64,000 nt of DNA from Chlamydiae bacterium RIFCSPLOWO2_12_FULL_49_12 (GCA_001796315.1 MGME01000004.1:3795-67794), one strand, 5' to 3'; positions 3,861 to 59,354 are shown, counted from the first letter of the stretch. Program-made: numbers and translations. The notes: generated by a model not told the origin, from the sequence alone.

Positions 3861-4025
3861 TGTACACAAGTTGATCCAAGAATCGGTTTTTGGCCAGCGC
3901 AAAAACTCCCGCGGTTGGCCTATCGTAAGTGGGTCAATATTAAACTAATATGGACCCATTTACGATAGGACAACCCCGGGGCTTGGGCGCGGCCCAAAAC
4001 CGATTCTTGAGTCAACTTGCGTATA
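3861..4025. repeat. Palindromic element, family A, copy A1 (165 bp hairpin)
   Basis: TGTACACAAGTTGATCCAAGAATCGG ... CCGATTCTTGAGTCAACTTGCGTATA with apex GGGTCAATATTAAACTAATATGGACCC. It sits between parA and the pGP6-like gene and overlaps the parA 3' end. Confidence 0.92.
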
Positions 4026-4778
4026 AATACGAGCCAGCACTTCCTTTGTTAAAGAAAGGTAATCGTGCGCCGCTCTGCTTTTTGGGGCTGTTTTAAAGAC
4101 GGGTTTTCCAAAGACCGAGGCTTCGGAGATGCGGATATCTCTTCGAATCTTCGACTGGAAGAGGCGCTCTGGAAAAGTCTCTTCAATGACTTCTAAAAAC
4201 GCTTGGTTGCTCTTTCCCCGCTCATTCCAAAAAGAGAGGGCGACGCCTACAATCGAAAAGGGGTGACGCTCGGCGATGTTTTTCATGAAGTGAGAGAGCC
4301 GCTGCAATCCTTTCACGCTGTAAAACTCCGGCGTTGCGCAGATAAGCGAGTGCTCTGCGGCGATGAGCGCAGATTCCGTGAGCCAGCAGAGCGAGGGGGG
4401 AGTGTCGATGAGGATGATCTCATAGCTTAAAGTTTTGAGCAGCGCTTTAAGGCGTTCATGGGAGTAGCGGTCGGCTGCCAGCACCCCTGTCACCTCGATG
4501 CGCTCCAGCCAGGTGTCTGCGGGAAGAAGATGAAGATTTTTCACTCCGGTCTTGACGATCACATCCTGGATCTTTTTTTTGCCTTGGAGCACAGGCGCAA
4601 GGCTGTCTTGCCTGTCCGGATCGTAACCGAGGCCTGTTGTCAAGTTGGCTTGCGCATCAAAATCAATCAAAAGGACCTTTTTTTTGTGAAAAAGCGCAAG
4701 CGCCGCTCCCACATGCAAGGCTGTAGAGGTCTTGGCCGTCCCCCCTTTAAAACTACTGACTGCAATGATCTTAGACAT
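3960..4778 (-). CDS. parA: ParA/MinD-family partition ATPase
   Basis: N-terminal deviant Walker A (SSFKGGTAKTSTALHVG) and ParA/Soj-like length. The last 21 codons (YTQVDSRIGFGPRPSPGVVLS) are encoded by repeat A1. Confidence 0.85.
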   Translation of the reverse strand: MSKIIAVSSFKGGTAKTSTALHVGAALALFHKKKVLLIDFDAQANLTTGLGYDPDRQDSLAPVLQGKKKIQDVIVKTGVKNLHLLPADTWLERIEVTGVLAADRYSHERLKALLKTLSYEIILIDTPPSLCWLTESALIAAEHSLICATPEFYSVKGLQRLSHFMKNIAERHPFSIVGVALSFWNERGKSNQAFLEVIEETFPERLFQSKIRRDIRISEASVFGKPVFKTAPKSRAAHDYLSLTKEVLARIYTQVDSRIGFGPRPSPGVVLS

Positions 4779-4788
4779 CTAAAAAAAA

Positions 4789-4850
4789 TGTTATTCCTCG
4801 CGAGAATCGATCTGGCTTTGCCGCGCAGCGCATCTTGGCGCTTGTTTAGG
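4789..4850. repeat. Half-copy of palindromic family C (C1, one arm only)
   Basis: TGTTATTCCTCGCGAGAATCGATCTGGCTTTGCCGCGCAGCGCATCTTGGCGCTTGTTTAGG aligns with the right arm of C3 (59279-59342). Confidence 0.8.
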
Positions 4851-6743
4851 TAGTACCCTTTGATTCTTTTCCTCTCTTAAGTTTTCCAGGAAGTGCGGAA
4901 GGGCCACTTCTCCATGAACAACATTATCCCTTGTTCTCAGATTGACGGTTTTATTTTCAAGTTCTTTATCGCCAATTGTCAAAATGTAGTTGATCTGCAA
5001 GAGTTGGGCGTTTCTGACTTTTTTTGAAACCGATTCGTTGCTGTCGTCGACGTCGCAAATCAGCCCGCTCTTTTTGATCTCGCGTTCGACATGGCGCGCC
5101 CTCTCGATGTGGCGGTCTGCAACGGTGAGGATGCGTACCTGATGCGGACTCAGCCAGAGGGGAAACCTGCCGGCAAAATGTTCAATCAGAATGCCAAAGA
5201 AGCGTTCAATCGACCCAAAAATGGCTCGATGGATCATCACAGGCCGTTTGCGCTCTCCGTCGCAATCCGTGTATTCGAGTTCAAATTTTTCGGGAAGGGA
5301 CATGTCAAGCTGAATGGTGCCGCACTGCCAGCGCCGGCCCAGGGCGTCGCGGACGTGCAGATCGATCTTCGGTCCGTAAAAGGCCCCCTCGCCCTCGTTG
5401 ATCTGGTAAGGTTCATCCCACTCGTCTAAAGCGCCTTTCAACCCTTCTGTCGCGATCTTCCACTCTTGGGCGGAGCCGATGCTCTTTTCGGGCCGTGTGG
5501 AGAGTTCCAGGGAATAGCTAAGCCCAAAGGCGCTGTAAATCTTCTCAACCAGAGCAAAGAGGTCTAAGATCTCCTCCCTGATGTCTGATGGTCTCATGAA
5601 CAGGTGGGCGTCGTCCTGATGGAAGCTGCGGACGCGAAAGAGGCCGCTTAACGCTCCGGAGGGTTCGTGCCGGTGGACGTGGCCAAATTCCGCAATCCTT
5701 AAAGGGAATTCCCGGTAGCTATGGCTCTTTGTTTTGAAATAGAGCATGCAGCCGGGGCAGCTCATCGGCTTGATGGCGAAGTTGCGCTCTTCGATGGAAA
5801 AGGCGTACATGTTCTCTCTGTAGTACATCCAATGGCCCGAGCGCTCCCACAGCTCTTGGCTCATCAGCTGCGGAGTTTTGATCTCGATATATCCCGCCTC
5901 TTGATGAAGCTCTCTCCAAAAGGCAAGAAGCGCATTCCAGATGATCATTCCCTTAGGATGGATAAAGGGCATTCCGGGAGCCTCTTCCTGAAGTGAAAAG
6001 AGATCGAGCCTGGGGCCGAGAAGCTTGTGATCCCGTTTTTTTGCCTCCTCGAGCAGGGCGAGATAGTCCTGAAGCTGCTTGCGGTCGGGGTAGGAGATGG
6101 CGTAGATCCTCGTGAGCATCTCGCGCTTGGAATCTCCTCTCCAATAAGCTCCTGCGGTCTTGAGAACCTTAAAAGCTTTGATCTTTCCCAGATTATACAG
6201 GTGAGGGCCGCGGCACAGATCAAAAAACTCCCCTTGGGAATAGGCGGTGATAGGTCCTTCTTCAAACCCTTCGATCAGCTCGGTTTTGTAGGGGTTGTGA
6301 TCAAAGCGCTCGATTGCCTCTTCTTTGTCCTTAAAGTGAAAGCGGAGGGAGAGATAATTCTCCTTGAGAATTTTTTGGATCTCTTGCTCCAGGAGCTCAA
6401 AATCCTTATCCGAGATCTCCAGGTTGGCAAAATCGTAGTAGAATCCATTTTCAATGGGAGGTCCAATCGTTGGAGTAGCCTTGGGCCAGAGGCGCAAAAC
6501 GGCTTGCGCCAAGACGTGTGCGGAGGAATGCCAGAAGACCTCTTTTCCTTCTTTGTTCTCAAAATTGTAAAAGATCACTTCGTCGCCTTCTGCCAACGGG
6601 GTCGAGAAGTCTCGAAAGACGCCGTTAATCGAGACGGCGACCGCTTCGTGCGGAGATGTCAGATTGAGCGCGTCGGCGACCTCCTTTGCGCAGCTTCCGT
6701 CCTTGAATTCTAATTTTCCTCGATCCTTAACTTTAATAAACAT
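4791..6743 (-). CDS. thrS: Threonine--tRNA ligase
   Basis: 650 aa with a TGS-like N-terminus and class II core motifs (RDHKLLG, FRVRSFHQDDAHLF, GAFYGPKID). The last 19 codons fall in half-element C1. Confidence 0.95.
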   Translation of the reverse strand: MFIKVKDRGKLEFKDGSCAKEVADALNLTSPHEAVAVSINGVFRDFSTPLAEGDEVIFYNFENKEGKEVFWHSSAHVLAQAVLRLWPKATPTIGPPIENGFYYDFANLEISDKDFELLEQEIQKILKENYLSLRFHFKDKEEAIERFDHNPYKTELIEGFEEGPITAYSQGEFFDLCRGPHLYNLGKIKAFKVLKTAGAYWRGDSKREMLTRIYAISYPDRKQLQDYLALLEEAKKRDHKLLGPRLDLFSLQEEAPGMPFIHPKGMIIWNALLAFWRELHQEAGYIEIKTPQLMSQELWERSGHWMYYRENMYAFSIEERNFAIKPMSCPGCMLYFKTKSHSYREFPLRIAEFGHVHRHEPSGALSGLFRVRSFHQDDAHLFMRPSDIREEILDLFALVEKIYSAFGLSYSLELSTRPEKSIGSAQEWKIATEGLKGALDEWDEPYQINEGEGAFYGPKIDLHVRDALGRRWQCGTIQLDMSLPEKFELEYTDCDGERKRPVMIHRAIFGSIERFFGILIEHFAGRFPLWLSPHQVRILTVADRHIERARHVEREIKKSGLICDVDDSNESVSKKVRNAQLLQINYILTIGDKELENKTVNLRTRDNVVHGEVALPHFLENLREEKNQRVLPKQAPRCAARQSQIDSREE

Positions 6744-7005: not shown

Positions 7006-8220
7006 ATGTTTTCGAGAGAGTTGGCCGGAACTTTAAAAAAATATGCCAAATTTCCGGTTGTTGCCTTATTAGGGCCCAGGCAGTCAGGAAAAACAACGCT
7101 AGTTCAAAATGTTTTTCAAAAGCATAAATTTTTGAGTTTAGACAATGAGATGACACAGATATTTGCATTGGAAGATCCTGAAGGCTTTTTATCAACCAAT
7201 GAGAATGAGCATGGGATCATTTTAGATGAGTTTCAGTATGCCCCAAAGCTTACAACGTATATTAAATTGGAAGCGGACAAAAAAAAACGGCCTGGTTACT
7301 TTATTTTAACAGGATCACAAAACTTTTTGGTAAATAAAGCAATTACCGAGTCTTTAGCCGGCAGAGTTGGCATATTAAATCTTTTACCGCTGTCTAATAA
7401 AGAGCTTTTTGAAAACAAATTAACCTCTGGAGCTCTGAACGAAATGATGTTCTATGGTGGGTATCCAAGAATTTATGCCGAAAATATTTTACCTACAGAA
7501 TTTTACCCTTCTTATATTTTATCCTACATTCAGAGGGATGTCGGGCAGTTCATAACACCCAAAAATATAGCTACCTTCCGGCGATTTGTTCAATTATGTG
7601 CTGGTAGAATTGGCCAATTATGCAATGTCCATGCTTTAGCCGCTGAAACGGGCATATCTTCTCCTACTGCCAAAGAATGGCTTTCTATATTAGAAGCAAG
7701 CTATGTTTTATTTTTTTTAGAACCTCATTTTCAAAATTTTAATAAAAGATTAGTTAAAACCCCGAAGCTGTATTTTTTTGATACTGGTCTAGCGTGTTCG
7801 CTCTTAAGAATCGACTCTCCAGAAGCGTTAAGCAATTCACATTTTCAGGGAGCTGTGTTTGAGTCTTTCATCATTTCCGATCTCTATAAGCAACAGTGCA
7901 ATGAGGGGCTTCGTCCTTCATTATATTTTTGGCGTGATAGCGGAGGAGCGCATGAAGTTGATTGTATTTTAGATCAAGGCGATCAATGTTACCCTATAGA
8001 AATAAAAGCAGGGAAAAGTGTTGCAAGCGACTCCTTCCGAGGGCTTGATTATTGGAATAAACTTGCCAATGTCAAGCCACAGAACTCCTATTTGATCTAT
8101 GCAAATGATGAAAAACAATTAAGAAAGCAAGGTAAAGTTATTGGATGGAAGGAGTCAAGCTCTTTATTAAGAAGTATTATTTCAGAAAAAAACGAAAGTA
8201 TTAACCCGAGACTCAAATAG
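7006..8220 (+). CDS. AAA+ ATPase with C-terminal DUF4143-like domain (COG1373-type)
   Basis: Walker A is LLGPRQSGKTTL and Walker B is IILDEFQ. The C-terminal half ends with a restriction-endonuclease-like segment (HEVDCILDQ...YPIEIK). Visibly more AT-rich than its neighbours. The first ATG is at 7006. Confidence 0.8.
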   Translation: MFSRELAGTLKKYAKFPVVALLGPRQSGKTTLVQNVFQKHKFLSLDNEMTQIFALEDPEGFLSTNENEHGIILDEFQYAPKLTTYIKLEADKKKRPGYFILTGSQNFLVNKAITESLAGRVGILNLLPLSNKELFENKLTSGALNEMMFYGGYPRIYAENILPTEFYPSYILSYIQRDVGQFITPKNIATFRRFVQLCAGRIGQLCNVHALAAETGISSPTAKEWLSILEASYVLFFLEPHFQNFNKRLVKTPKLYFFDTGLACSLLRIDSPEALSNSHFQGAVFESFIISDLYKQQCNEGLRPSLYFWRDSGGAHEVDCILDQGDQCYPIEIKAGKSVASDSFRGLDYWNKLANVKPQNSYLIYANDEKQLRKQGKVIGWKESSSLLRSIISEKNESINPRLK

Positions 8221-8360
8221 GTGACAAGATGCGCTGTGAGGCAAAGCCAGATCGATTCTCGCGAGGAATAACATTCTTGAATACGAAGGATTCCGAGCGA
8301 GAATCGATAGGGCAAAGACGCAACAAGCAGATTGTCACCTGTTTGAGGCTCGGGTTAATA
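8199..8360. repeat. Palindromic element, family C, copy C2 (162 bp hairpin)
   Basis: TATTAACCCGAGACTCAAATAGGTGACAAGATGCGC ... GCAGATTGTCACCTGTTTGAGGCTCGGGTTAATA. It overlaps the last codons and the TAG stop of the ATPase gene. Confidence 0.9.
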
Positions 8361-8524
8361 AGATTGGATTTGATTTTGCAGTGCTCGACTTTGTTTTTTT
8401 TTGGAGACGGTGATTCACGGTGAAAGGGATTTTTCGGGACGGTTTTTTTTCGTTCTTCCTTGCAAAACTGCTTTCATCATAAGCCAAGCCGCTCTAAAAT
8501 CTGTTAGATGAACAGGAACATTTC

Positions 8525-10600: not shown

Positions 10601-10601
10601 C

Positions 10602-18500: not shown

Positions 18501-18941
18501 CAAGGCTTAGAAGAAGAGGTCTGTACGCTGATACAAGGGGTCTTTCACCTTCCCCTTTTAGACGGGCGGGAGGCTTTTTCTTTGAGCCAGCTTAGGCCGG
18601 GCGAGGTGCTTTCCGAATTTGAGTTTGTCCACCCTTCCCCAAGGGGGCTGATCAAAGGATTCATTGACCTCGCCTTTCTCAAAGAGGGAAAGTACTATCT
18701 TCTCGACTGGAAATCCAACTTTTTGGGAGAAGATGATGAGGCTTACGCGGAAGAGAAATTGAGAGAAACAATGGAGCAAAAGGATTATTTTTTTCAGGCC
18801 TCTCTCTATGCAGGCGCCCTGAAGCGTTATCTGGAACTCTTTGATCCACGTCCATTTAAGGAGATATTCGGAGGAGCTTTGTATCTCTTTGTCCGCGCGA
18901 AGAGAGTGTATCGCTTTTTCCCAAATCTGTTTTCATGGTAA
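15576..18941 (+). CDS. recB: Exodeoxyribonuclease V beta subunit (helicase-nuclease)
   Basis: UvrD-type motifs are present: EASAGTGKTFAI, VVTFTRAATRELK, TIHGFC, IMDEFQDTD, LVGDPKQAIYGFRKAD, TNYRS. The C-terminal nuclease motif is GFIDL...YYLLDWKSN. Confidence 0.92.
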   Translation: MFSFDVLDRNLKVEGGLFLEASAGTGKTFAIQHLVLRLLLEKEAPLTLDQILVVTFTRAATRELKRRIRSHLEAAHAQLSAKSSEWDYLNALLESGEERVYEAAKRVEAALLCFEEAPIFTIHGFCHRLLKETAFEAGVGLDLYDSASDSLNVQWKETLFDAFRTELCPPSFSASQIRHLLSRGGGDLYKLADELYALIQKDKEIPLFLEFGELFVAFRERIAALSRRFLLSQERLLVDFQTHASCYKEMTGPAFKEQMELLSSLLEKGEVEKQEFDACLRQREFFLEKMVLSNKKARSFPPSTSALHYPGLAQALNEEILPLISQGKDPRQLLLRLASGAHKRMEALASEQEELSPDALLKKTEEALCDPEILIRVREKFRAVIMDEFQDTDPIQWRIVKRLYRPEAAPSLYLVGDPKQAIYGFRKADVYSYLLAASLFSKKRHFFLTTNYRSEPSLIHALNTLFSYTKSWLPLPAQKKALSCPALSPAPGKSASEIEDGKKSVHFFLSEGRLGREGSWPTLQIECDLLFPFLAEEAVRLHKEREIPLEQMAFLVKDRFQAERLQLFFHGKNIPAVLKRKQEAARSLALLPMKELLEAAWSPGDLSALKRALGSSLFLWDLQRLISREEVARIQPFFFELKEAWREGGVGLLYERVLQSGVLERLLAAKELALYADLQLLAALLMEKEAQESLQPQEVIKFLRRLKNEEEKAPLPASPALGGVQILTLHMSKGLEFEVVFALALASRHLKLEEFVSVKEKTKEWLVPLSLDPRTKSVLLEKDAEKLRQLYVALTRAKRRVYIPVVLDEGENNVPMGTASPLEIFLGRLLLKEEGCDLERVYALQLPLARDRVFSLLDDLKASAPFSLEVLANKESPPFSPASLLPSLIPPDPFAPAFPAEPVLSFSSLTRKEESASAPFKLPSATTLHALPPGAETGVLLHALFDKIFLYELYSPYAKDKIRLLVENEIAATALQGLEEEVCTLIQGVFHLPLLDGREAFSLSQLRPGEVLSEFEFVHPSPRGLIKGFIDLAFLKEGKYYLLDWKSNFLGEDDEAYAEEKLRETMEQKDYFFQASLYAGALKRYLELFDPRPFKEIFGGALYLFVRAKRVYRFFPNLFSW

Positions 18942-18951
18942 TAGTAGAGAC

Positions 18952-20217
18952 ATGACGGAAATTAGCATGGAAGCAATCCGGCTCTTCCAAAGGAGCCGAT
19001 TTTTCCGGGGGCTTACGGAACGGCAGATGCGCGAACTTATCCCCCTGGTGCGTAAGATCCAATTCGATGCGGGCGATTACATTGTCCACGAGGGAGATCT
19101 TGCCAATGATCTCTTCGTGATTCTGGAAGGAGAGGTCGATGTCATTAAAAAAGAGCCCTCTTCCGAACAAAGGCACCGCCTGACCAAACTCACCCAAGAA
19201 GACATTTTCGGAGAAATGTCCTTGATTGAACAGGGAACCCATTCGGCAACGGTGCGCGCGGTCAAGCCCACGACGCTTCTTGCGCTCTCGATCAATGAAG
19301 CGCGGATGCTCTCTTCTGAAAAGTCAAATTATGAAAGACTGAGGCAGAAGATGCGAGGGATTATCGAGGAGATCGACTTTCTGTCCCGAGAGCAGCCGAC
19401 CTATTTTAAGCTTTCGACAAATCTGGCGACAGAGCTCTCCTTGAGGCTTAGGCAGGCCAATGAAGTGACCGTCGACTCTCTTAAGGGACAGCTCCATGAA
19501 GCGCGCTCGAGAGTTGCGATGGGAAGCTTCATGATCAATGTTCTGACGATGCTGGTCCTATATGTCTTTTCGCTCAAGGCCATCTCGACCTTTGGAGAAG
19601 AGGGACTTTCTACTGCCATTATCTCGGTCCCCCTCATTGTTCTCTTTGCCTGCGGGCTCATCGTGATGATGAAATCGCATGGCTATCCTTTAAGCTTTTA
19701 CGGCCTCACGCGGAAGAATTGGAAGCGGAGCGCTTTCGAAGGGGTTCTGATTTCCATTCCTCTCATCGCTCTCTGTACGCTCATAAAATGGTTTTTGATC
19801 ACCTTTATTGAAGGGTTTGAAGGCGTGCGCCTCTTTAGCTTCACTTTAGGCATCAATTCCGATTACTTAGGCAAGGTTCCCCTCTTCGTCATTGTTATCC
19901 TGCCCCTCATCTATCTGCTCTTCACCCCTCTTCAGGAGTTGATTTCCCGAGGCGCTCTGCAGAGCTCGCTTGAGGAATTTCTGGTCGGAGCGCACAAACA
20001 GTGGTGGGCTATCCTCCTCTCTAACCTTCTTTTTAGCGTCACTCACCTGCACGTCTCTTTTGAAATGGCGCTCGCCGTCTTCATTCCCGGTCTGGCCTGG
20101 GGCTGGCTTTACTCTCGCCAGCGTAGCCTGGTGGGCGTCTCCGTGTCCCATATGGTGGTCGGCAGTTTTGCCTTCTATATCTTAGGAGTCCAGGGAGTTT
20201 TGACCGTAAATCCTTAA
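18952..20217 (+). CDS. Cyclic-nucleotide-binding-domain protein fused to a CPBP (CAAX/Abi-type) intramembrane protease domain
   Basis: The N-terminal cNMP fold is FFRGL...GDYIVHEGD...FVILEGEV...FGEMSLIEQGTHSATVRA. Several TM helices follow, then CPBP motifs QELISRG (EExxxR-like), FSVTH (FxxxH) and SHMVVG. ATG 18952 follows the recB stop. Confidence 0.75.
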   Translation: MTEISMEAIRLFQRSRFFRGLTERQMRELIPLVRKIQFDAGDYIVHEGDLANDLFVILEGEVDVIKKEPSSEQRHRLTKLTQEDIFGEMSLIEQGTHSATVRAVKPTTLLALSINEARMLSSEKSNYERLRQKMRGIIEEIDFLSREQPTYFKLSTNLATELSLRLRQANEVTVDSLKGQLHEARSRVAMGSFMINVLTMLVLYVFSLKAISTFGEEGLSTAIISVPLIVLFACGLIVMMKSHGYPLSFYGLTRKNWKRSAFEGVLISIPLIALCTLIKWFLITFIEGFEGVRLFSFTLGINSDYLGKVPLFVIVILPLIYLLFTPLQELISRGALQSSLEEFLVGAHKQWWAILLSNLLFSVTHLHVSFEMALAVFIPGLAWGWLYSRQRSLVGVSVSHMVVGSFAFYILGVQGVLTVNP

Positions 20218-20218: not shown

Positions 20219-20285
20219 CTCGACTTTGCACCATTTGCGATGGCGCCTCCTTGAAATTCGGCTGTCGCAAATTGACAACGTCGAG
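20219..20285. repeat. Short hairpin element (F1), related to the arms of family G/E
   Basis: CTCGACTTTGCACCATTTGCGA...TCGCAAATTGACAACGTCGAG. The internal GGCGCCTCCTTGAAATTCGGCTGTCGCAAATTG resembles the G1 right arm and F2. Confidence 0.7.
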
Positions 20286-20291: not shown

Positions 20292-20456
20292 TATACACAA
20301 GTTAACTCAAGAATCGGTTTTCGGCCAGCGCGAAAACTCCCGCGGTTGGCCTATCGTAAAGAGGTCAATATTAAGTTAATATGAACCTCTTTACGATAGG
20401 TCAACCCCGGGGTTTTGGCGCGGCCCAAAGCCGATTCTTGAGCTAACTTGTGTATA
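20292..20456. repeat. Palindromic element, family A, copy A2 (165 bp)
   Basis: TATACACAAGTTAACTCAAGAATCGG ... CCGATTCTTGAGCTAACTTGTGTATA with apex GAGGTCAATATTAAGTTAATATGAACCTC. Confidence 0.92.
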
Positions 20457-20507: not shown

Positions 20508-20541
20508 GCCCAAACCCGATTCTTGAGTCAACTTGTGTATA
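20508..20541. repeat. Solo terminal arm of family A (about 34 bp)
   Basis: GCCCAAACCCGATTCTTGAGTCAACTTGTGTATA equals the right terminus of family A. It contains the first in-frame start candidates of recD. Confidence 0.8.
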
Positions 20542-22151
20542 TAGCAGATGTTGATCTTCTCTTTGCAAAGAGCGTTCTCAAATATGCGCCTTTAGCCAAG
20601 AAGGGCGCAGTTGAGGCGATTTCCCGCGCCTTGGCGGGGGCCCGCCAGGGGCATCTGTGCGTGCGGGTCGAGGATGTCACTCTTTTTCCCGAAGAGGTGG
20701 TCGAGAGAGTGGATCGGACAAGCGGTCCTTTTGCAAAGCCGCTCTGTCTCTTTGGAGACCTTCTCTATTTGCAGAAGAACTGGATTTTTGAGAACCGTCT
20801 TCTCAAGGAGCTAAAGAGATTGTCGGAGCCGCTTCCTCTCTTGCGACTCTCTGATGAGGCCGAAGATCTGACGGAAGAGCAGCGGAACGCAATGCAAAGG
20901 GCGGCCGGTTCTTCTCTTTCCCTGATCACCGGAGGGCCCGGAACGGGGAAGACCTACATGGCGGCGCGCATCATCCGGGCCTTCTTGAAAGAAAATGCGA
21001 GTTTTCGCTTGGCGCTGGCTGCCCCGACGGGAAAGGCGGCCGCTGCCCTGGAAGACGCTCTTTCCGGGATGGGGGGCTCTTTTCCTTCGGCTCGTGTGGC
21101 GACGGTGCATGCCCTGCTCTTCTTAAAGCCCCATAGTGAGGAGGTTGAAAAAAAACTCCCTTACGATCTTATCCTTGTTGACGAAGCTTCCATGCTCGAC
21201 GCGCGTCTTTTCGCCGCCCTCTTGGCGTCTGTACAAGTGGGAACGCGCCTGATCTTGATGGGAGATAGCGACCAGCTCCCGCCCGTGGAGGCGGGATCTC
21301 TTTTTGCAGATCTTTTGGATCTTGGCCTCTTTCCTTGTACGCGTCTGACGAAATGGCTGCGTACAGAGAGCCGTCCTCTTTTAGAATTGGCCCGCGCCAT
21401 ACGGGATGGAGATAAAGCTGTGGCGCTTCAACTGATGCGAAAAGAGAGTCTGCAGGGTGATTTCGGATTCTCTTTTCTCTCCGTCAACCAAATCCACGAA
21501 AGAATCTGGAGCTTTGTGAAAGAGCGCATCCCTGCGCATTTTAGCCAGAGGCCGACAAAAGAGGAAATCCGCCAGGTGTTGGAGGGATTTCGCATTCTCT
21601 CCTGCCTGAGAACGGGGCCTTTGGGCGTCGATGCCCTCAATCAAAAGCTTGTCAATCAGTTTTACAGAACAGCTCCTGTGGGGAGTTATGTGGCCATCCC
21701 CGTTCTCCTCACTCGCAGTGATTCCTCACGAGATCTTTACAACGGACAAACGGGAGTTTTCATCAAACAAAAAGAGGAAAGAGACGGCGTTCTTTTGACG
21801 GAAAAAGACGAGATCGTCTTTGCTGAGCGCACCCTGCCCGCTCTTGCTGTGGCGCACTTCGAGTATGCCTGCTGTCTCTCGGTCCACAAGAGCCAGGGGA
21901 GCGAGTATGCGGAAGTGCTGCTTCTTGTGCCTAAGGGATCGGACAATTTTGGAAGAGAGGTCCTCTATACGGCAGCAACCCGCGCAAAAAACCAATTATG
22001 GGTTGTCGGGGATGAAGCAACAATAGAAAAAGCGCTAGAGCGCTCCTCTCGCCGACAATCGGGACTTATACCGAACGCACTTCAAAAATTGGAATTTCGG
22101 CTGCGCCAAAGCCTCGGGGTTCGACAATCGCATCTCGCCCCATATTTCTAA
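20523..22151 (+). CDS. recD: Exodeoxyribonuclease V alpha subunit
   Basis: Motifs: ITGGPGTGKTY, LILVDEASMLD, LILMGDSDQLPPV, SVHKSQGSEY, YTAATRAK. The start is uncertain (TTG 20523 or GTG 20535 inside the repeat arm, or later). The last 27 codons and the TAA stop are inside repeat B2. Confidence 0.88.
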   Translation: MSQLVYIADVDLLFAKSVLKYAPLAKKGAVEAISRALAGARQGHLCVRVEDVTLFPEEVVERVDRTSGPFAKPLCLFGDLLYLQKNWIFENRLLKELKRLSEPLPLLRLSDEAEDLTEEQRNAMQRAAGSSLSLITGGPGTGKTYMAARIIRAFLKENASFRLALAAPTGKAAAALEDALSGMGGSFPSARVATVHALLFLKPHSEEVEKKLPYDLILVDEASMLDARLFAALLASVQVGTRLILMGDSDQLPPVEAGSLFADLLDLGLFPCTRLTKWLRTESRPLLELARAIRDGDKAVALQLMRKESLQGDFGFSFLSVNQIHERIWSFVKERIPAHFSQRPTKEEIRQVLEGFRILSCLRTGPLGVDALNQKLVNQFYRTAPVGSYVAIPVLLTRSDSSRDLYNGQTGVFIKQKEERDGVLLTEKDEIVFAERTLPALAVAHFEYACCLSVHKSQGSEYAEVLLLVPKGSDNFGREVLYTAATRAKNQLWVVGDEATIEKALERSSRRQSGLIPNALQKLEFRLRQSLGVRQSHLAPYF

Positions 22152-22230
22152 TATTGGGCGAGATGCGATCGTCGAACCGCGAGAGCTTTCGCGTCGGCCC
22201 AAATCCAATTTTTCAAGTGCGTTCGGTATA
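22067..22230. repeat. Palindromic element, family B, copy B2 (164 bp)
   Basis: TATACCGAACGCACTTCAAAAATTGG ... CCAATTTTTCAAGTGCGTTCGGTATA. It lies between convergent recD and rpsT and overlaps both ORF ends. Confidence 0.92.
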
Positions 22231-25594: not shown

Positions 25595-25595
25595 A

Positions 25596-25668
25596 TGGAG
25601 CGTAGCGGAATCGAACCGCTGACCTCAACAATGCGAGTGTTGCGCTCTACCAACTGAGCTAACGCCCC
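25596..25668 (-). tRNA. tRNA-Ala (anticodon CGC)
   Basis: The reverse complement GGGGCGTTAGCTCAGTTGGTAGAGCGCAACACTCGCATTGTTGAGGTCAGCGGTTCGATTCCGCTACGCTCCA folds as a cloverleaf. It has a G3:U70 pair and anticodon loop CTCGCAT. No CCA is encoded. Confidence 0.92.
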
Positions 25669-25682
25669 AGAAAAAACAACTC

Positions 25683-25790: not shown

Positions 25791-25804
25791 AAACGGAGTA
25801 GAAA

Positions 25805-39366: not shown

Positions 39367-40440
39367 ATGATCGATATCGAAGCCCTAAATTACTGGTTTG
39401 AAAAGGAAAAGAGAGATCTTCCTTGGCGGAAAGAACGCTCGTTTTATCGGGTATGGGTCTCTGAGGTGATGCTGCAGCAGACGCAAGCAGCTGTCGTTGT
39501 TCCCTATTTTGAGCGGTGGATGAAAAAATTTCCCAGTATCGAGGCATTAGCTTCCGCTGCAGAAGAGGAAGTGATCAAGGCTTGGGAAGGTCTTGGATAC
39601 TATGCCCGCGCCCGCCATCTCCATGCAGGGGCGAAATTCCTTCTAGGAAAGAGAGCGGACAGAGAGGTGCTTCTCAAAATTAAAGGGGTGGGCCCTTATA
39701 CTCTAAATAGCATTCGTGCGTTTGCCTTTCAGGAAAGGGCTGCGGCTGTCGATGGGAATGTCGCGCGGGTTCTCTCCCGGCTCTTTTTGATCGATGACCC
39801 CGTCGACCGCATCCGCACAAAAAAAAGACTCGAGGAACTGCTTCTTCAGCTTTTACCGCTTTCTATGCCCTCGCTAACTCTTGAGGCGTTCATCGAGCTG
39901 GGGGCTTTGGTTTGCCAAAGAATCCCTCTTTGCTTTTGCTGTCCTCTGAAACAGGGATGCAGGGGATATGCTAGCGGGCTTGCCGCCTCCCTTCCTAAAA
40001 AAAAACAGAAGACAAACTATCTTTTTAAAGAGCGCCGGGTGACGGTCATTTTTTGCGGAAAGAGAGTTCTCTTGCGGCGAAACTGGCCGAAACAGGTGAT
40101 GGCGGGTCTCTATGAATTTCCCTATTTTGAGGAAGGGGATCTCAAGGGCCATTTTGACAAGTTGGGGGTTCAAGCGGTCTTGACTCACACGCTCTCTCCC
40201 GTCAAGCAGACCTTTACGCGTTATCGCGTTCTTCTCTTTCCTTCTCTATTCCTTGCACGGCAGCCAAAAGAGAGCAAAGAGCACGAATGGAAGGAGTATG
40301 CGGCGCTTCCCTTCCTCCCTTTTTCATCGGGCCATCGCAAAATTCTACAAGCCCTTGACGCCATCAAGCCTTTCTGCTCTTTAGTCGGCTTTGTACATTT
40401 TTTGAGGCCGCCTTTCGGGAGAGCAGCTCCCTGGTTGTAA
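39367..40440 (+). CDS. mutY: A/G-specific adenine DNA glycosylase
   Basis: LPWRKERSFYRVWVSEVMLQQTQAAVVVPYFERWMKKFP, the HhH-GPD segment KGVGPYT, the Fe-S Cys cluster C..C..CPLKQGC and a NUDIX-like C-terminal domain. The last 18 codons lie in repeat G1. Confidence 0.9.
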   Translation: MIDIEALNYWFEKEKRDLPWRKERSFYRVWVSEVMLQQTQAAVVVPYFERWMKKFPSIEALASAAEEEVIKAWEGLGYYARARHLHAGAKFLLGKRADREVLLKIKGVGPYTLNSIRAFAFQERAAAVDGNVARVLSRLFLIDDPVDRIRTKKRLEELLLQLLPLSMPSLTLEAFIELGALVCQRIPLCFCCPLKQGCRGYASGLAASLPKKKQKTNYLFKERRVTVIFCGKRVLLRRNWPKQVMAGLYEFPYFEEGDLKGHFDKLGVQAVLTHTLSPVKQTFTRYRVLLFPSLFLARQPKESKEHEWKEYAALPFLPFSSGHRKILQALDAIKPFCSLVGFVHFLRPPFGRAAPWL

Positions 40441-40543
40441 TGAATTTCTCAGGAAGGGTTGATTTAACCCTTCCTTCAAAATTCATTACAACCAGGGAGC
40501 CGCCTCCTCGAAATCCGGCTATCAAAAAATGTACAAAGCCGAC
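40384..40543. repeat. Palindromic element, family G, copy G1 (160 bp hairpin)
   Basis: GTCGGCTTTGTACATTTTTTGAGGCCGCC...CCCTGGTTGTAATGAATTT / AAATTCATTACAACCAGGG...TCAAAAAATGTACAAAGCCGAC with apex GGAAGGGTTGATTTAACCCTTCC. Confidence 0.9.
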
Positions 40544-40592
40544 CTTTAGAATCTGCTATTCAAAAAGAGGCAAAGTCGAGATCATAGAGCGC

Positions 40593-41699
40593 ATGCGTAT
40601 TTTGCATACGGAAAGCTCTTCAGGCTGGGGTGGTCAGGAGATCCGCATTTTGACGGAGGCGGAAGGGATGCGCATGCGCGGCCATGAGATAGTCTTTGCT
40701 GTCTCACAAGGAGGAGGTCTTGCTCTTCAGGCAAGGAAAAAGGGCTTTATTGTCTATGAAGTGAGTTTTAAAAAAAGAGCCTTATTCAAGACGCTTCTTT
40801 TGCTGCTTCAACTGATGCGCCGTCATGAGATCCAGCTTGTCAATACCCATTCTTCGTGCGACGCCTGGATGGGAGGATGCGCCGCGCTTTTGATGCGAAA
40901 GAAGATCATTCGGACGCGGCATCTTTCGACGAGCATTCGAAAAGGACTCAACAGCCTTCTCTTGTATCGGCTTCTTGCGGATTATGTAGTGACCACCTCC
41001 TCATGCGTTATTCCCATGATCTGTAAGCAGGCGAAAAGAAAGCCGGAGCATTGCGTCTGTATTCCCACGGGAATTGACCCTTTGCTCGTGAAAGCCAACG
41101 AAGAAGAGGTCTTGCGTTTTCGCGCCTCCTTGGGAGTAATGGATGAGGATTTTCTTGTAGGAACGGCCTGTTTTGTGCGCTCCTGGAAAGGGATTTTTGA
41201 TTTTTTGAAAGCAGCCCACTCGCTGAGAGAGGAAAAGCATCTCAAGTGGATCATTGTGGGAGGTGGTTATCTCCGAGAATATCAAAGAGTTGCAGAGGAA
41301 ATGGGTCTAGGTTCCGCTGTTATTTTTACCGGCCATCTCGACGCTCCCTACGCAGCCCTTGCGGCTATGGATCTCTTTGCATTGCTGAGTACCGCCAATG
41401 AAGGGATCTCCCAAGCCGCTCTGCAAGCCGCCTACTTGAAGCGGCCCCTTATTACCACTCCCATCGGCGGATTGCCGGAAGTATGCAAAGATCAACAGAC
41501 GGGAATGATCATTCCTCCCCGGGCGCCAAAAGAGTTTGCCAAGGCCGTTCTTTTGCTCAAAAATAATTCTCTTCTTCGCGAAGAAATGGGACGAAAAGGG
41601 CGAAAGCTGGTTGAAGAGAGGTTCATGCGCAAGCAGATGCTGGATAATCTGGAGGAAGTCTATGCAAAACTATACCATGTCGAGTTAAAGGGGAAATGA
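40593..41699 (+). CDS. GT4-family glycosyltransferase
   Basis: MRILHTESSSGWGGQEIRIL is a GT-B N-terminus and the C-terminal half contains EGISQAALQAAYLKRPLITTPIGGLPE (EX7E-like region). The ORF-track start at 40440 lies inside repeat G1 and was dropped. Confidence 0.75.
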   Translation: MRILHTESSSGWGGQEIRILTEAEGMRMRGHEIVFAVSQGGGLALQARKKGFIVYEVSFKKRALFKTLLLLLQLMRRHEIQLVNTHSSCDAWMGGCAALLMRKKIIRTRHLSTSIRKGLNSLLLYRLLADYVVTTSSCVIPMICKQAKRKPEHCVCIPTGIDPLLVKANEEEVLRFRASLGVMDEDFLVGTACFVRSWKGIFDFLKAAHSLREEKHLKWIIVGGGYLREYQRVAEEMGLGSAVIFTGHLDAPYAALAAMDLFALLSTANEGISQAALQAAYLKRPLITTPIGGLPEVCKDQQTGMIIPPRAPKEFAKAVLLLKNNSLLREEMGRKGRKLVEERFMRKQMLDNLEEVYAKLYHVELKGK

Positions 41700-42346
41700 G
41701 CATGTTTAAGGAGATCAAACGCTCTTTCAAGAGAGCTTTTTCTGTTCTATGCGTGGCGCTTGCAACGGTTGTCCTAAGCTATCAGTTGATGCAAAAGAAA
41801 AAATCGTGCGTTGAAAAGAAGTATCATAGGGCCCATCTCCTCTTGGAAAAATGGAAGAAAGGAGATGAAAAGGGGTTTGATAAACTTACAGCTATGTTGA
41901 AAAAGCAGCCCTCTTTCCATGAGACTTTTGATGCGCTCATTGTGGAGCATTTCATGGATCTAAAGAGAGCGCAGGATGCCAGGAAATTCCTGCATTCCTC
42001 TCTGGAAAAGAGAGAGCTTCCCCTGCATCGGCAATTTTCCAGCACGTCTCTTCTCATTTCTGAAGGAGAGCTCCTCCTGGCTTTGGCAGAGGCAAAGGCT
42101 CTTCAGGCCGAGTTGCTACAGACTGCGAACCCTAAACAGGAAGTGCTCAGTGCTTTTAACCTTTGGAGAATTGCCCTGTTGGAAAAGCAGGCAGGAACCC
42201 CAAAGGGCGAACAGGAAGCCTTGAATGCTTTAGAAGCGCTTGGTGAAAAAGAACGCCTGCTGCTCCAAGAGCTCTTTCAGATAAACCGCCTCTCTCTGTT
42301 TGATTACGTCAAACATCGCAAGGCAGCCCTTGCTTCGGTTTTGTGA
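41696..42346 (+). CDS. Hypothetical membrane-anchored helical protein
   Basis: 4-nt overlap with the GT4 gene. It has an N-terminal TM (AFSVLCVALATVVLSYQL) and a helical remainder. No family recognised. Confidence 0.5.
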   Translation: MSMFKEIKRSFKRAFSVLCVALATVVLSYQLMQKKKSCVEKKYHRAHLLLEKWKKGDEKGFDKLTAMLKKQPSFHETFDALIVEHFMDLKRAQDARKFLHSSLEKRELPLHRQFSSTSLLISEGELLLALAEAKALQAELLQTANPKQEVLSAFNLWRIALLEKQAGTPKGEQEALNALEALGEKERLLLQELFQINRLSLFDYVKHRKAALASVL

Positions 42347-42355
42347 CTTTTTGGA

Positions 42356-42520
42356 TATACACAAGTTGATTCAAGAATCGGTTTTGGGCCGCGCCAAAGC
42401 CCCGGGGTTGGTCTATCGTAACTGGGTCCATATTAGTTTAATATTGACCCAGTTACGATAGGCCAACCGCGGGAGCTTTCGCGCTGGCCCAAAACCGATT
42501 CTTGAATCAACTTGTGTATA
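42356..42520. repeat. Palindromic element, family A, copy A4 (inverted orientation)
   Basis: TATACACAAGTTGATTCAAGAATCGG ... CCGATTCTTGAATCAACTTGTGTATA. The asymmetric internal arms are in the opposite order to A1-A3. Confidence 0.92.
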
Positions 42521-55793: not shown

Positions 55794-58391
55794 ATGGGTT
55801 GTTATCTAACCTCTTTAGCTGCAGTTCTTTTTTTAACTTTTTCACTCTTTTCAGGAGAGAGAGGCCCTTTGCTGCGCGCTAAAGAGCCCCACTGGCGGCC
55901 CACCATTGTGGAGACCTATCCCGAAGGCCAGCCCATGCGTGTTGTTTATGTTGAAGAGTTGGAAGGGGGCGAGCTAAAAGAATGGAAACAGGTCACATTC
56001 TACGCGACGGGACAGATCCAGGAGGAAGTTGATCTAGTCCGCATTTCCAAAGAGGCGCCGGCTTTTTCCCTGTGGAATAAAGAGCATGTTCCTCACGGGG
56101 CCTCTCTTGTCTACTATCCCAACGGGGCTCTGGAAAAAATTGCTTATTTTACTCAAGGATTATTGGATGGTCAATGCACCCTCTATTTTCCCGATGGCAA
56201 AGAGCGCTTGAAGTGCACTTATAAAGAAGGAAAGTTCGACGGGCCGATTGTCGCCTATTTTGAAGATGGGACAAAATCCAAAGAGGGATGTTACAAAGAA
56301 GGCAAACTGCACGGCGATCTCATCCAGTACTTCTCCAAGGGAGGCCGCTCTTCGCTTGTCACCTATCTCGAGGGGGTTCCACACGGCTCTTCGAGCGAGT
56401 GGTATGAGAATGGTGTTTTGAAAGCTTCCCGCCATTACCATAAAGGGCTTTTACATTCTGACGGGAAAAATCCTGCAGTCATTCTCTACAACGAAGAGAG
56501 AGGGATTCAGGAGGCTCAGGATTTCAAACAGGGAAAGCCCGTGGGTATCCACATCCAATACCACTCCAACGGGAAGGAGAGTTACAAGGTTTCCTACGTA
56601 GACGGACAAAAGGAGGGGAAGGAAATCCATTTTTCCACTACCGGAAAAGTGAAAGGAGAGGGTGAATATGAGCGGGGCGCGCCAAAGGGGCGGCATTGGA
56701 GAGATCATGAAAATGGAGCGCCGGCCTTAAGGGCGCTCTATGATGAAAATGGAAATTTTGCAGAGCCGCTTGTGACCTTTGGAGAAAATGGCAAAAAGCT
56801 CTCGCAATATAGACTTTCAAAAGAGGGCTCCTTTGAAGGGGAGTATCTAAGCTGGTATGAAGAAGGTCAGCCCAAGGAGGAGTTCCGCTACGAAAAGGGA
56901 GTTAAAAGCGGCGAGCAGCGAGAGTTCTATCCTTCAGGGCAGATGAAGGAGAGAGCTTTTTACGATGCAGGGATGAAAGAGGGTATTTTTGAGAGCTGGC
57001 ATGAAAATGGCAAGCTTGCAAAACAAGCGACCTATCAAAAAGGGAGCAGGGAAGGCAAGGCGGAAGAGTGGTTTTCGGACGGTCGCCTAAAATGTCAGGA
57101 ATGCTACCGGCAAGGAGAACTCGAAGAAGAGAAAAAAGAATGGTTTGAGAGCGGGGTGTTGCATTTGTCCGGATGTTTTAGCAAAGGAAAAAAGAGCAAG
57201 GAGCATTGCGAATGGAATGAGAAGGGGGAACTCGTCTTTCAGGGCAGTTATGTTGACGGTCTTCCCGACGGGTTGGTGACTCTTTGGTGGAAAGATGACA
57301 AAATCCGCGAGCGGATTCATTTTAACAAGGGAAAGAGAGAGGGGATAGACGAAGAGTTCTATCTGGACGGAAGCCCCAAGGCCCGTGCCCATTACAGAGA
57401 TGATCAGGTCGATGGTCTCTTTGAAACCTGGCATGAGGGCGGTGGTATCCATCAGATCAAGACGTTTAAACTGGGAAAGCCCGTTGGAGAACAGAAAGAG
57501 TATTTCTCGAAACAAGAGATCGGTGAACAGGGAGCGGAGGTTCTCTCCTACCATTACCACTATAATGAAGAGGGAAAGCTTCATGGGGAGCAAAGGACCT
57601 ATTATCCCAATGGGAGGATTCAAACGGTCATTACGTATGACGGAGGTTCTCTTGAGGGAAGAAAGGCTCTATGGGATGAAGAGGGGGCTCTTTTAGAAGA
57701 GGCCTTTTACGAAAAAGGACAGCTTCATGGGCGCCACTTTGAAAGAGGACAAAGGAAAGAAGAGATCATCACCCACTACAAAAACAACAAAAAAGAGGGC
57801 GTCCATGAGATCTATTATCCCGCCAATGACTACTTTGGGAGAGTACGAGCTCTTGAAGCGCGTTTCGTTTCCGACAAGCTCGAGGGAGATGTCGTGGAGA
57901 ATAATGAGGCTGGAACAATAATTGCAAAGACCCCTTACAGGAATGGAAAGAAGGAAGGGATTGCCGAGCTTTACTTTCCCAAAGGGGCGATGATGATGAA
58001 GATATCTTACAAAGAGGGGAAGAAAGAGGGGCCGGCTATCCGATTCTTTGAAAACGGGAACACCCAAAGAGAGGTCTCTTTTGTCGCCGATTTTAAGGAG
58101 GGGGATGAAAAGAGCTATTTTGAAAATGGTCAGCTTGCCTCTTTCATCCAATTTAAACAGGACAAGATCGACGGCAACTATCAGGAATGGAATGAACAGG
58201 GAATACTTCTCTTTGATTCCGAATACAAAGAAAATAAACGCCACGGAAAATTTAATAAATACGACGAGGAGGGAAAACCCTATCTTTTGCAAACCTTTGT
58301 CGATGACGAACTCGACGGCATCAAAAGGCGTTATGAAAAGGATGGATCCATCACAGAGACCCGGTACAGCAAAGGAAAAAAACTTGACTAG
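55794..58391 (+). CDS. Large MORN-variant / YwqK-like repeat protein
   Basis: Signal-like N-terminus, then more than 25 iterations of a ~23-aa unit (Y.NG.....Y..GK.(D/H)G....(Y/W)). AAGGAA lies upstream of ATG 55794. The TAG stop lies in the first bases of repeat D1. Confidence 0.8.
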   Translation: MGCYLTSLAAVLFLTFSLFSGERGPLLRAKEPHWRPTIVETYPEGQPMRVVYVEELEGGELKEWKQVTFYATGQIQEEVDLVRISKEAPAFSLWNKEHVPHGASLVYYPNGALEKIAYFTQGLLDGQCTLYFPDGKERLKCTYKEGKFDGPIVAYFEDGTKSKEGCYKEGKLHGDLIQYFSKGGRSSLVTYLEGVPHGSSSEWYENGVLKASRHYHKGLLHSDGKNPAVILYNEERGIQEAQDFKQGKPVGIHIQYHSNGKESYKVSYVDGQKEGKEIHFSTTGKVKGEGEYERGAPKGRHWRDHENGAPALRALYDENGNFAEPLVTFGENGKKLSQYRLSKEGSFEGEYLSWYEEGQPKEEFRYEKGVKSGEQREFYPSGQMKERAFYDAGMKEGIFESWHENGKLAKQATYQKGSREGKAEEWFSDGRLKCQECYRQGELEEEKKEWFESGVLHLSGCFSKGKKSKEHCEWNEKGELVFQGSYVDGLPDGLVTLWWKDDKIRERIHFNKGKREGIDEEFYLDGSPKARAHYRDDQVDGLFETWHEGGGIHQIKTFKLGKPVGEQKEYFSKQEIGEQGAEVLSYHYHYNEEGKLHGEQRTYYPNGRIQTVITYDGGSLEGRKALWDEEGALLEEAFYEKGQLHGRHFERGQRKEEIITHYKNNKKEGVHEIYYPANDYFGRVRALEARFVSDKLEGDVVENNEAGTIIAKTPYRNGKKEGIAELYFPKGAMMMKISYKEGKKEGPAIRFFENGNTQREVSFVADFKEGDEKSYFENGQLASFIQFKQDKIDGNYQEWNEQGILLFDSEYKENKRHGKFNKYDEEGKPYLLQTFVDDELDGIKRRYEKDGSITETRYSKGKKLD

Positions 58392-58553
58392 TGCTCTGTC
58401 AACATTCAAATTGCGGATGCGCTAGCGCGAAAGCTGCCGAATTTCAACGATCGCAAGTGCCTTAGTATTAGAAATACAAATGGCACGTGCGATCGTTGAA
58501 ATTCGGCGCTTTGGCGCCGCGCATCCGTAATTTCAATGTTGACAGAGCACTAG
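58388..58553. repeat. Palindromic element, family D, copy D1 (166 bp hairpin)
   Basis: CTAGTGCTCTGTCAACATTCAAATTGCGGATGCGC ... GCGCATCCGTAATTTCAATGTTGACAGAGCACTAG. It shares the ACGATCGCA...TGCGATCGT core and the GCGAAAGC/GCTTTGGC core with family B. Confidence 0.9.
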
Positions 58554-58601
58554 TTTATCTCGACTGTGCGCCGATCAAAGCTGCCTGCAAAAAATCTCTT
58601 T

Positions 58602-59183
58602 TCAACGAGTTGCGCCAACTTTTCTAAAAATATGAAGGAGCGTCATTCCATAGCGGCGGGATTCGTTGAAATGTAACTGTTTGAGTCCCAATGAATGGAA
58701 GTGTAGTTTCTGAGGAGCTCTCTCTTCTACGAAAAGCAGAGCGTCGCTTGCAAGGAGGGAGGAGCTGTCAAGGAACTTAAGAATTTCAGGAAGAAGAAGA
58801 GGGGCAAGATCGTAGGGAGGATCGACGTAGATCAAGTCAAACTTCCGCTCTTTTTTTGCCAGTCGCTTCAGTTGAACGAGAGCCTCTCCTTTCAGCACAT
58901 GGACGGCCTCTTGATCAATCTTTAAGGAGAAGAGATTTTCTTCAAGAGCGCGCAGAGCATGGAAGTCCTTGTCAATGAAGAACGCCGTGCGCGCTCCGCG
59001 GCTGAGAGCTTCAATACCCATGGCTCCGCTGCCTGCAAAAAGATCTAAGAACGAGGCATGCTCAATAAAAGGTTGGGAGAGGTCGAAAACCGCTTTGCGC
59101 ACAAGAGAGGTTGTAGGGCGGATCTCCTTGCTTTTGGGAGCCTTGAGCAGGCGTCCTTTGAATGTGCCTGCGAGAATACGCAT
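58602..59183 (-). CDS. rsmD: 16S rRNA (guanine966-N2)-methyltransferase
   Basis: MRILAGTFKGRLLKAPKSKEIRPTTSLVRKAVFD, FLDLFAGSGAMGIEALSRGA and IYVDPPY are typical of RsmD. Confidence 0.85.
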   Translation of the reverse strand: MRILAGTFKGRLLKAPKSKEIRPTTSLVRKAVFDLSQPFIEHASFLDLFAGSGAMGIEALSRGARTAFFIDKDFHALRALEENLFSLKIDQEAVHVLKGEALVQLKRLAKKERKFDLIYVDPPYDLAPLLLPEILKFLDSSSLLASDALLFVEERAPQKLHFHSLGLKQLHFNESRRYGMTLLHIFRKVGATR

Positions 59184-59199
59184 CCTTACGGTCCTTGAA

Positions 59200-59354
59200 G
59201 AGTCTGAAAACAGGCGACAATCTGCTTGTTGCGGCTTTTCCCTAGCGATTCTCGCTTCGAATCCTTCGTCTTCAAGAAGGTTATTTCTCGCGAGAATTGA
59301 TCCGGCTTTGCCGCGCAGCGCATCTTTGTCGCCTGTTTGAGGCTCGGGTTAATA
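59200..59354. repeat. Palindromic element, family C, copy C3 (left terminus truncated, inverted relative to C2)
   Basis: GAGTCTGAAAACAGGCGACAATCTGC ... GCGCATCTTTGTCGCCTGTTTGAGGCTCGGGTTAATA. The internal arms are in reverse order relative to C2. It overlaps the TAA stop of the vWA gene. Confidence 0.85.

Follow-up and report, generated by a model that had tools for sequence, protein, structure and literature searches.

Palindromic elements at the 3' ends of nine genes in a 64-kb stretch of a Chlamydiae bacterium genome

We have analysed a 64-kb stretch of Chlamydiae bacterium RIFCSPLOWO2_12_FULL_49_12 (GCA_001796315.1, MGME01000004.1:3795-67794; 64,000 nucleotides, 48.8% G+C), hereafter called the window, in which repeat finding and alignment have located about 12 palindromic elements. 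If a palindrome of 99 nt located between two tRNA-Ala genes is included, the total is ~1,965 nt, i.e., 3.1% of the window. The initial annotation of this DNA had claimed that the repeats supply C-terminal codons and/or the stop codon of nine open reading frames (ORFs), namely parA, thrS, a DUF4143 ATPase gene, recD, rpsT, mutY, a TagF-like gene, and the genes for a MORN protein and a vWA protein. When the gene ends were read by direct translation through the repeat boundaries, all nine stop codons were found to lie within a palindromic repeat or its duplicated target, and the codon numbers given earlier were right to within one codon. The coordinates of the elements and of their contacts with genes are collected in Table 1.

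Table 1 Palindromic elements of the window, their boundaries and their positions relative to genes.
Feature	Position	Type and boundaries	Relation to genes
B1	363-522	full B element, 160 nt, TA flanks	intergenic, unfused
A1	3863-4023	family A, 161 nt; right flank TA (4024-4025), left flank degenerate TG	parA residues 252-272 and stop
parA tail	3960-4025		repeat-derived YTQVDSRIGFGPRPSPGVVLS and TGA
C1	4789-4850	internal one-arm C fragment, no terminus, no duplication	thrS residues 632-650 and TAA (4791-4793)
C2	8201-8358	full C element, TA flanks (8199-8200 and 8359-8360)	last 5-6 codons and TAG of the DUF4143 ATPase
A2	20294-20454	full A element	between gene 18841-20217 and recD; unfused to any ORF
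Solo A arm	20508-20539		bears the sole available recD start codons
B2	22069-22228	160 nt, TA flanks	between convergent recD and rpsT; recD residues 517-542 and TAA, rpsT residues 104-108 and TGA
99-nt palindrome	25688-25786	TTAAA/TTAAA duplication, G1-like terminal repeats	between two tRNA-Ala genes; unfused to any ORF
C-arm stub	35843-35866	~24 nt	directly at the left end of B3
B3	35869-36029	full B element, abuts the C-arm stub	divergent 5' region
A3	36514-36674	family A, TA flanks	Y-T-S-TGA end of the TagF-like gene, in place of ~6 native residues
G1	40384-40543	160-nt palindrome, CTTTA/CTTTA duplication	mutY residues 340-357 and TAA
A4	42358-42518	A element, inverted, TA flanks	between convergent genes; unfused, stops 9 and 18 nt beyond its TA flanks
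D1	58391-58550	palindrome, B-related interior, TA within CTAG	MORN stop TAG (58389-58391) is the TA flank and the first D1 base
C3	59208-59352	C element, left terminus decayed	vWA stop TAA and part of Tyr609 come from the right-hand TTAA terminus

The elements measure 158-166 nt with near-perfect inverted symmetry, and each family has 3-4 copies at unrelated loci of the window. Within a family the copies are 87-97% identical, and the identity is lost abruptly at the termini. Predicted hairpin energies range from -61 to -133 kcal/mol over all elements, against -36 to -46 kcal/mol for shuffled sequence, and full copies reach -84 to -133 kcal/mol (about -40 when shuffled). Families A, B, and D, all with TA flanks, belong to one superfamily: their interiors are related (76% identity over 138 nt between A4 and B2, 69% between D1 and B2), and the divergence lies mainly in the outer ~12 nucleotides. 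The elements look modular, with A and B alike in their interiors and not in the outer ~12 nt, and with A-type termini that carry unrelated interiors in the metagenome-assembled genomes (MAGs) of other Chlamydiae.

According to the multiple alignments, the boundaries of family A are TA-TACACAAGTT...AACTTGTGTA-TA and those of family B are TA-TACCGAACGC...GCGTTCGGTA-TA, both with unrelated sequence outside the flanks; C2 is bounded as TA-TTAACCCGAG...CTCGGGTTAA-TA. Six of the eight full A, B, and C copies have TA on both sides, and so does D1, within CTAG, which we take to be a site preferred by IS630. TA target duplication, one mark of MITEs (short for miniature inverted-repeat transposable elements) derived from IS630/Tc1-mariner, is found here. 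The G type differs in its duplication, which spans 5 bp at four independent copies (CTTTA, AAAAA, TTAAA, and TTAAA). Flanks of this kind are what a transposase leaves on duplicating its target site. The termini are TACAC, TACCG, TTAACCC, or GTCGGC, and their sequences (TACACAAGTTGAYTCAAGAATCGG, TACCGAACGCACTT, TTAACCCGAG, and CTCGRCTTTGTACATTTTTTGA) are those to be expected around a parent transposase gene. Terminal inverted repeats are conserved across the copies of A, B, C, and G in the window, and for the A and G types also in other genomes, despite differing interiors. The elements themselves have no coding capacity for a transposase (frames of 0-54 codons, no Pfam or Rfam match), and an Rfam scan of the window matched two tRNAs and none of the elements.

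Seven genes, thrS and rpsT (ribosomal protein S20) among them, end in a few repeat-encoded amino acids. The minus-strand gene parA (3960-4778) runs to a TGA within A1. In the DUF4143 ATPase gene, C2 provides most of an Ile codon followed by N-P-R-L-K and the TAG at 8218-8220. B2 serves two convergent genes at once, giving recD most of Ile516 ahead of its tail and, from the opposite end, giving rpsT the residues Y-T-E-R-T. The other two contacts are real and yet trivial. D1 makes no difference to the MORN protein, since the duplicated TA target is part of its TAG, and the vWA protein, whose TAA lies at 59349-59351, has gained at most one residue (Tyr). No in-frame stop precedes the elements. 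Moreover, the Pfam and NCBIfam profiles stop ahead of every tail: at residue 625 of 650 in ThrS, 91 of 108 in S20, 511 of 542 in RecD2, 328-330 of 357 in MutY (NUDIX), and 245-254 of 272 in the ParA-type protein.

The nearest relatives outside the species (contigs L006-L011, with 50-77% protein identity) have kept the local gene order, and none of them has an element at the compared junctions. Aligned with these orthologs, recD, rpsT, parA, thrS, mutY, and the TagF-like gene all lose homology at the repeat boundary; the refuting outcome named in the initial annotation, homology running on through the tails, is not seen in these genes. Between the convergent recD and rpsT there is an 8-nt overlap in L006 and a 10-nt gap in L007; the relatives' rpsT encodes 94 or 96 amino acids with a final K, and recD homology extends up to ...SSRKxSGL, ending exactly at the B2 boundary. 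When B2 and one TA are deleted in silico, rpsT ends in ...APSK-TAA and recD in ...SGLI-TAG, with an 8-nt overlap as in L006. For parA, the relatives L008 and L009 have 251 amino acids ending in ...ARM or ...ARL and then TAA, with the UPF0137 gene starting 23-29 nt further on behind a GGAG motif. The window's parA matches them up to ...ARI at residue 251, after which come 21 residues encoded by A1. Deletion of A1 with the right-hand TA kept gives ATT-TAA followed by GTGAGGAGACAAAAG-ATG, i.e., a 251-residue ParA with TAA at the orthologs' position. From the restored TAA it follows that A1 entered the parA stop codon at its TA.

The thrS gene in L008 and L009 encodes 638 amino acids with the conserved end ...RSLTSPFETQ, common to dozens of orthologs (conserved form ...RSLxSxF), and overlaps the parA start as ATGA. 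In the window, the match continues up to ...RVL (residue 631), then the 19 residues of C1 follow and the conserved terminal motif is lost. The earlier statement that essential genes (thrS and rpsT) carry repeat-derived tails is hence borne out by the frames and by the ortholog ends alike. As the relatives' thrS and parA overlap while those of the window do not, translation in this operon is no longer coupled as it was. The TAA of thrS comes from the centre of the C1 fragment, the parA ATG lies 12 nt further on, and C1 places a GAGGAA motif 15 nt upstream of this ATG (4776-4802).

As for mutY, the protein ends in ...HAHFTH in L010 and L011, and the gene overlaps the start of a glycosyltransferase gene by 20 nt. 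The window's MutY is homologous up to ...SSGHRKIL and has 12 further residues before G1 begins; removal of G1 and one CTTTA yields a 351-residue MutY whose stop lies 5 nt before the glycosyltransferase ATG (~40592). Past the conserved IK of TagF, the orthologs have 13-14 residues, the reconstruction has 10, and the present gene has 7, of which the last three come from A3. For vWA, the ends of the orthologs differ from that of the window protein by 0-3 residues. The same procedure was tried for C2 under TA and TTAA duplication models and gave no credible native C-terminus of the DUF4143 protein, for which the case rests on the coordinates.

The 5' end of recD is affected as well. The solo A arm with its TA flank (20508-20541) contains a TTG at 20523 and a GTG at 20533, there is no other in-frame start, and the conserved RecD N-terminal D..LFA motif follows directly after the arm. 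Since the recD start codons lie in this arm, the start of a gene and its first 2-6 residues are likewise provided by the repeats.

Variation within the species has been followed in groundwater MAGs whose proteins are 99-100% identical to those of the window (RIFCSPHIGHO2_02_FULL_49_29, GWA2_50_15, GWC2_50_10, and GWF2_49_8). The strain-level set comprises at least five independently assembled MAGs and up to 43 contigs, and all variants share the same tail-bearing lengths: 272 residues for parA, 650 for thrS, 108 for rpsT, 357 for mutY, 351 for TagF, 609 for vWA, and 538 for recD. Since the lengths recur in independent MAGs, the insertions are fixed and are not assembly artefacts. In recD, 7 of 26 sites vary in the tail and 5 of 512 in the body (p = 2e-7), with a similar but weak tendency in parA. 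The one variant stems from another Rifle sample (contig L018, 1480-1530), where A1 is internally deleted to ~47 nt and the parA tail becomes YTQVAKNRFLDQLVYK, of 16 residues; this may be either a real deletion in the palindrome or an assembly shortcut. Overall, the tails are at least partly free to change.

On these grounds, the palindromes are very probably non-autonomous DNA transposons (MITEs) that have inserted at tight gene junctions, where only the insertions with short tails were kept. The A/B/D superfamily and the C family would insert at TA and duplicate it, and the G type would duplicate five AT-rich base pairs, the transposase presumably acting in trans. Insertion would destroy or displace the native stop, so that translation would continue inside the element up to whichever in-frame stop chance offers first, after 0-26 codons. 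Copies that left the protein functional would have been retained, are now fixed in the species, and carry tails that are probably neutral; later decay would have produced the fragments such as C1, the solo arms, and the internally deleted A1. At the relatives' junctions the genes abut or overlap (spacings of -20 to +30 nt), and thus any insertion between genes that overlap or lie less than 30 nt apart alters a gene end. Because the junctions are so short, the TA sites where an insertion can be tolerated are those of stop codons (TAA/TAG) and of the last codons. TA target duplication and short junctions together explain why the elements sit on stops. Four insertions are of this stop-codon TA kind (parA, rpsT, MORN, and probably vWA), while A3 has inserted in a Leu TTA seven codons ahead of the stop, and the other copies lie 9-77 nt past stops (A4, A2, and B1) or in 5' regions (B3).

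Chance is far from accounting for the repeats and for their placement at gene ends, but it does account for the tail lengths and the stop content. With a chance stop frequency of 5.1% per codon, the mean open run is 19.5 codons, and the observed tails have 0-26. Accordingly, the tail lengths fit reading into arbitrary sequence, filtered by selection against long or harmful tails. An enrichment of stops in the elements was considered and rejected: stops are overall no commoner than by chance, and in family B they are depleted, with 2-4 of the 6 frames free of stops from one end to the other, against ~6% of random 54-codon frames. The earlier suggestion that TA-rich termini give stops in several frames holds for C, D, and one frame of A, but not for B and G.

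Several observations weigh against insertion as the common origin of these gene ends. C1 has neither termini nor a duplication and needs secondary deletions to be explained. The left flanks of A1 (TG/TA) and of B3 (GA/TA, abutting another element) are not TA, the left end of C3 is decayed, and the C2 reconstruction gives an implausible native tail. The pre-insertion state is read solely from relatives with 50-77% protein identity, and no empty site was found within the species among the strain-level variants (at least five MAGs). The variability of the recD tail could be inflated by mis-assembly of repeats in metagenomes, and the thrS and mutY tails are invariant among strains, which low diversity or constraint could explain. 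In the genome scan, which was made with the A terminal repeat, the matches were short elements only, and no autonomous insertion sequence with such ends was among them.

Could the hairpins instead have been kept for a role at the RNA level, such as stabilising mRNA, offering RNase III sites, attenuation, or decoupling translation, with the coding overlap as a side effect? Roles of this kind have been reported for Correia and ERIC elements (PMC3184786, PMC10969869). The stability of the full-copy hairpins, their fixation in all strain-level genomes, the contact with a gene 3' end at 8 of ~12 loci, and the invariant thrS and mutY tails would all suit it. However, no T-run follows the termini of any element, so that the GC-rich stem plus T-run of an intrinsic terminator is not present, and a promoter and terminator consensus scan, which covered the region 3700-4900, detected nothing inside A1 or C1. 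B1, B3, and A2 lie in 5' or divergent-promoter regions, and fragments, solo arms, and the internally deleted A1 persist. We regard this origin as unlikely, although a part of the hairpins in the fate of mRNA is possible. Alternatively, the families may have evolved to target stop codons and to bring a replacement stop, as a safe landing in compact genomes. The four insertions exactly in a stop-codon TA (parA TAA, rpsT TAA, MORN TAG, and probably vWA) would agree with this, as would the C and D termini (TTAA and TA+G), which regenerate a stop within 0-1 codon. On the other hand, the relatives' short junctions contain only 1-2 TA sites, the stop-codon TA among them; A3, A4, A2, B1, and B3 have not inserted in stop codons, and family B is depleted in stops. 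Targeting of this sort seems quite improbable. Both ideas can be combined, A/B/C/D being then a transposon lineage adapted to compact intracellular genomes, which prefers the stop-codon TA and brings a stop and sometimes a start (recD), and whose fixed hairpins act as 3' mRNA or operon-decoupling modules. This also appears unlikely; if true, it would amount to a general system of gene-boundary remodelling in environmental Chlamydiota.

Two other explanations have been weighed. Elements adapted to in-frame life inside proteins, as selfish modules giving surface peptide segments in the manner of the Rickettsia palindromic elements (RPEs), might be suspected from their translation at gene ends and from the likewise intracellular host. 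Against this, the window has no in-frame internal copy, every fusion stops in the element after 0-26 codons in frames that differ between genes, and no known RNA or repeat family showed sequence similarity to the elements; the ORFs that span whole elements are N-terminal over-extensions. We hold this to be very improbable. An artefact of annotation or assembly, by which native stops would precede the repeats or repeats would be mis-assembled into gene ends, has next to no probability. Palindromic repeats are indeed hard to assemble, as the shortened A1 of L018 and the Ns inside a palindrome of contig L005 illustrate. Yet this explanation is refuted by the frames, which contain no stop ahead of the elements, and by the identical protein lengths in at least five independent MAGs (13-43 contigs). 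Insertion of MITEs at tight gene junctions hence remains the preferred explanation.

Similar elements occur elsewhere. When representative genomes were scanned with the A terminal repeat, only 5 loci came out, all in two other chlamydial MAGs (JAZKBL01 and PLXF01); the window's own genome was not returned. The elements there are palindromes of 170 nt that share the terminal 26-32 nt and have TA flanks but unrelated interiors, and the A-type copies in contigs L001 and L002 are flanked by TA on both sides. A metagenome scan with the G1 terminal repeat has identified a copy in L015 that is 91% identical over 158 nt, at a different locus and with AAAAA flanks; L012 and L013 have G1 terminal repeats around another interior with TTAAA flanks, and L014 has a half copy. 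In the Parachlamydiales MAG palsa_1448 (contig L004), an ORF at 1828-2391 ends inside an A-type element with the tail ...PKNRFLN, and two A-type elements stand in tandem (~1497-1679 and ~1820-2002). Beside the single A-type arm of L003, no transposase was found; a RecD2-like helicase is located there.

Further traces of the elements are visible in the window. The 99-nt palindrome, which with its TTAAA flanks spans 25683-25791, has the tRNA-Ala(cgc) gene (25594-25669) on one side and the tRNA-Ala(ggc) gene (25804-25878) on the other. It has a terminal repeat, CTCGACTTTGCAACTTTTTGG, similar to the one of G1, and a 54-nt stretch is 100% identical to the end of the metagenome contig L014. G-like terminal repeats have 8 matches in the window where shuffling gives 0.05 expected. 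Remnants of this kind lie at 8385-8402, 20220-20237, 40562-40579, and 42335-42352. One opens a 70-nt palindrome 3 nt past the stop of gene 18841-20217, one falls within the displaced native 3' remnant of mutY, and one covers the final codons and the TGA of gene 41696-42346. The position of the C-arm stub against B3 suggests that one element inserted within or next to the other and that a deletion came later. A long ORF that crosses both (35361-36047) is an N-terminal over-extension, and its true start is likely MSTFRR.

The closest known parallel is offered by QMITE1 and QMITE2 of Coxiella burnetii, small MITEs with terminal inverted repeats and very stable hairpins, which overlap, by 1-50 bp or more, the 3' ends of the functional genes ubiB, pntAA, mutT, nagZ, recN, ruvB, and enhC and thereby give them C-terminal residues and/or a stop alone, as listed in a table of 'amino acids conferred' (Wachter et al. 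2018, PMC5896051). Here, too, small hairpin MITEs give gene C-termini and stops in an intracellular bacterium. The present elements have no sequence kinship with QMITE1/2, belong to another phylum, and are near-perfect palindromes over their whole length; for parA and rpsT the pre-insertion state (the stop-codon TA) can be rebuilt to the base, and the density, with nine affected genes in 64 kb, is higher. Gene 3' ends are also lengthened by the enterobacterial ERIC/IRU, the Yersinia YPAL, and the pneumococcal RUP, BOX, and SPRITE repeats (Delihas 2007 and Croucher 2011; review, PMC3184786). Like our elements they are imperfect palindromes over the whole length (~100-170 nt) and have many copies, but they are unrelated in sequence and reside in free-living or facultative hosts with longer intergenic spacers. 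In the literature searched, we have found no tail of an aminoacyl-tRNA synthetase or a ribosomal protein derived from repeats of the ERIC, YPAL, RUP, or BOX type. REP/BIME sequences are extragenic palindromes at gene 3' ends, mobilised by RAYT transposases (PMC3733652). They measure 20-40 nt, have GTAG/CGTC heads, and make no target duplication, whereas the elements here are of 160 nt with TA or 5-bp duplications. A REP-like cluster of short GC-rich hairpins, such as GGGCCGAGTTTCGAACTCGGCCC, does occur in the window at 29420-29520, and its first 81 nt (29420-29500) are 93% identical to L015 (7411-7491). Two membrane-protein paralogues on the minus strand (28682-29395 and 29617-30219) share the near-identical 39-residue C-terminus SLLSAKEPLKKGWEKLSGLRKQ.QPSESDRLIPPDQ, encoded by a 118-nt direct repeat with 96% identity.

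The Rickettsia palindromic elements (Ogata et al. 2000) measure ~100-150 nt and are reportedly translated within host proteins of an obligate intracellular bacterium. As the precedent named in the initial annotation, they do match in being palindromes in coding sequence. The match is looser than supposed, since RPEs are internal and in-frame with the downstream protein preserved, while all nine contacts here are 3'-terminal and stop in the element or its flank; the QMITEs, ERIC/YPAL, RUP, and BOX are closer. In the Correia elements of Neisseria (CREE/NEMIS), only the 26-bp ends are inverted, integration host factor (IHF) sites and promoters are carried, and the known effects concern transcripts and not C-termini. 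They come near the present elements in that they measure ~100-155 bp, have terminal inverted repeats and a TA duplication, lie between genes, and are transcribed into hairpins (PMC3184786, PMC10969869). For Chlamydiae, no report of MITEs was found in the literature searched, and the Waddlia genome paper has only 'numerous repeated sequences' longer than 200 bp. The element families and the phylum are new, and the case is dense and well resolved; the mechanism is not new (Coxiella QMITEs, Delihas 2011).

With these elements, Chlamydiota join Rickettsia and Coxiella as intracellular lineages in which small palindromic mobile elements rewrite protein termini. The picture is unusually clean and reaches the base level: in both parA and rpsT, a TA-duplicating element would land in the TAA, after which the next chance stop would set the tail. 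ThrRS, S20, RecD, MutY, and ParA tolerate 5-26 arbitrary C-terminal residues in this way. Gene calls in chlamydial MAGs are inflated or distorted by such elements, which add tails, mimic N-terminal extensions, and give spurious ORFs that run across them, and which also break assemblies; at the same time, they could serve as strain markers.

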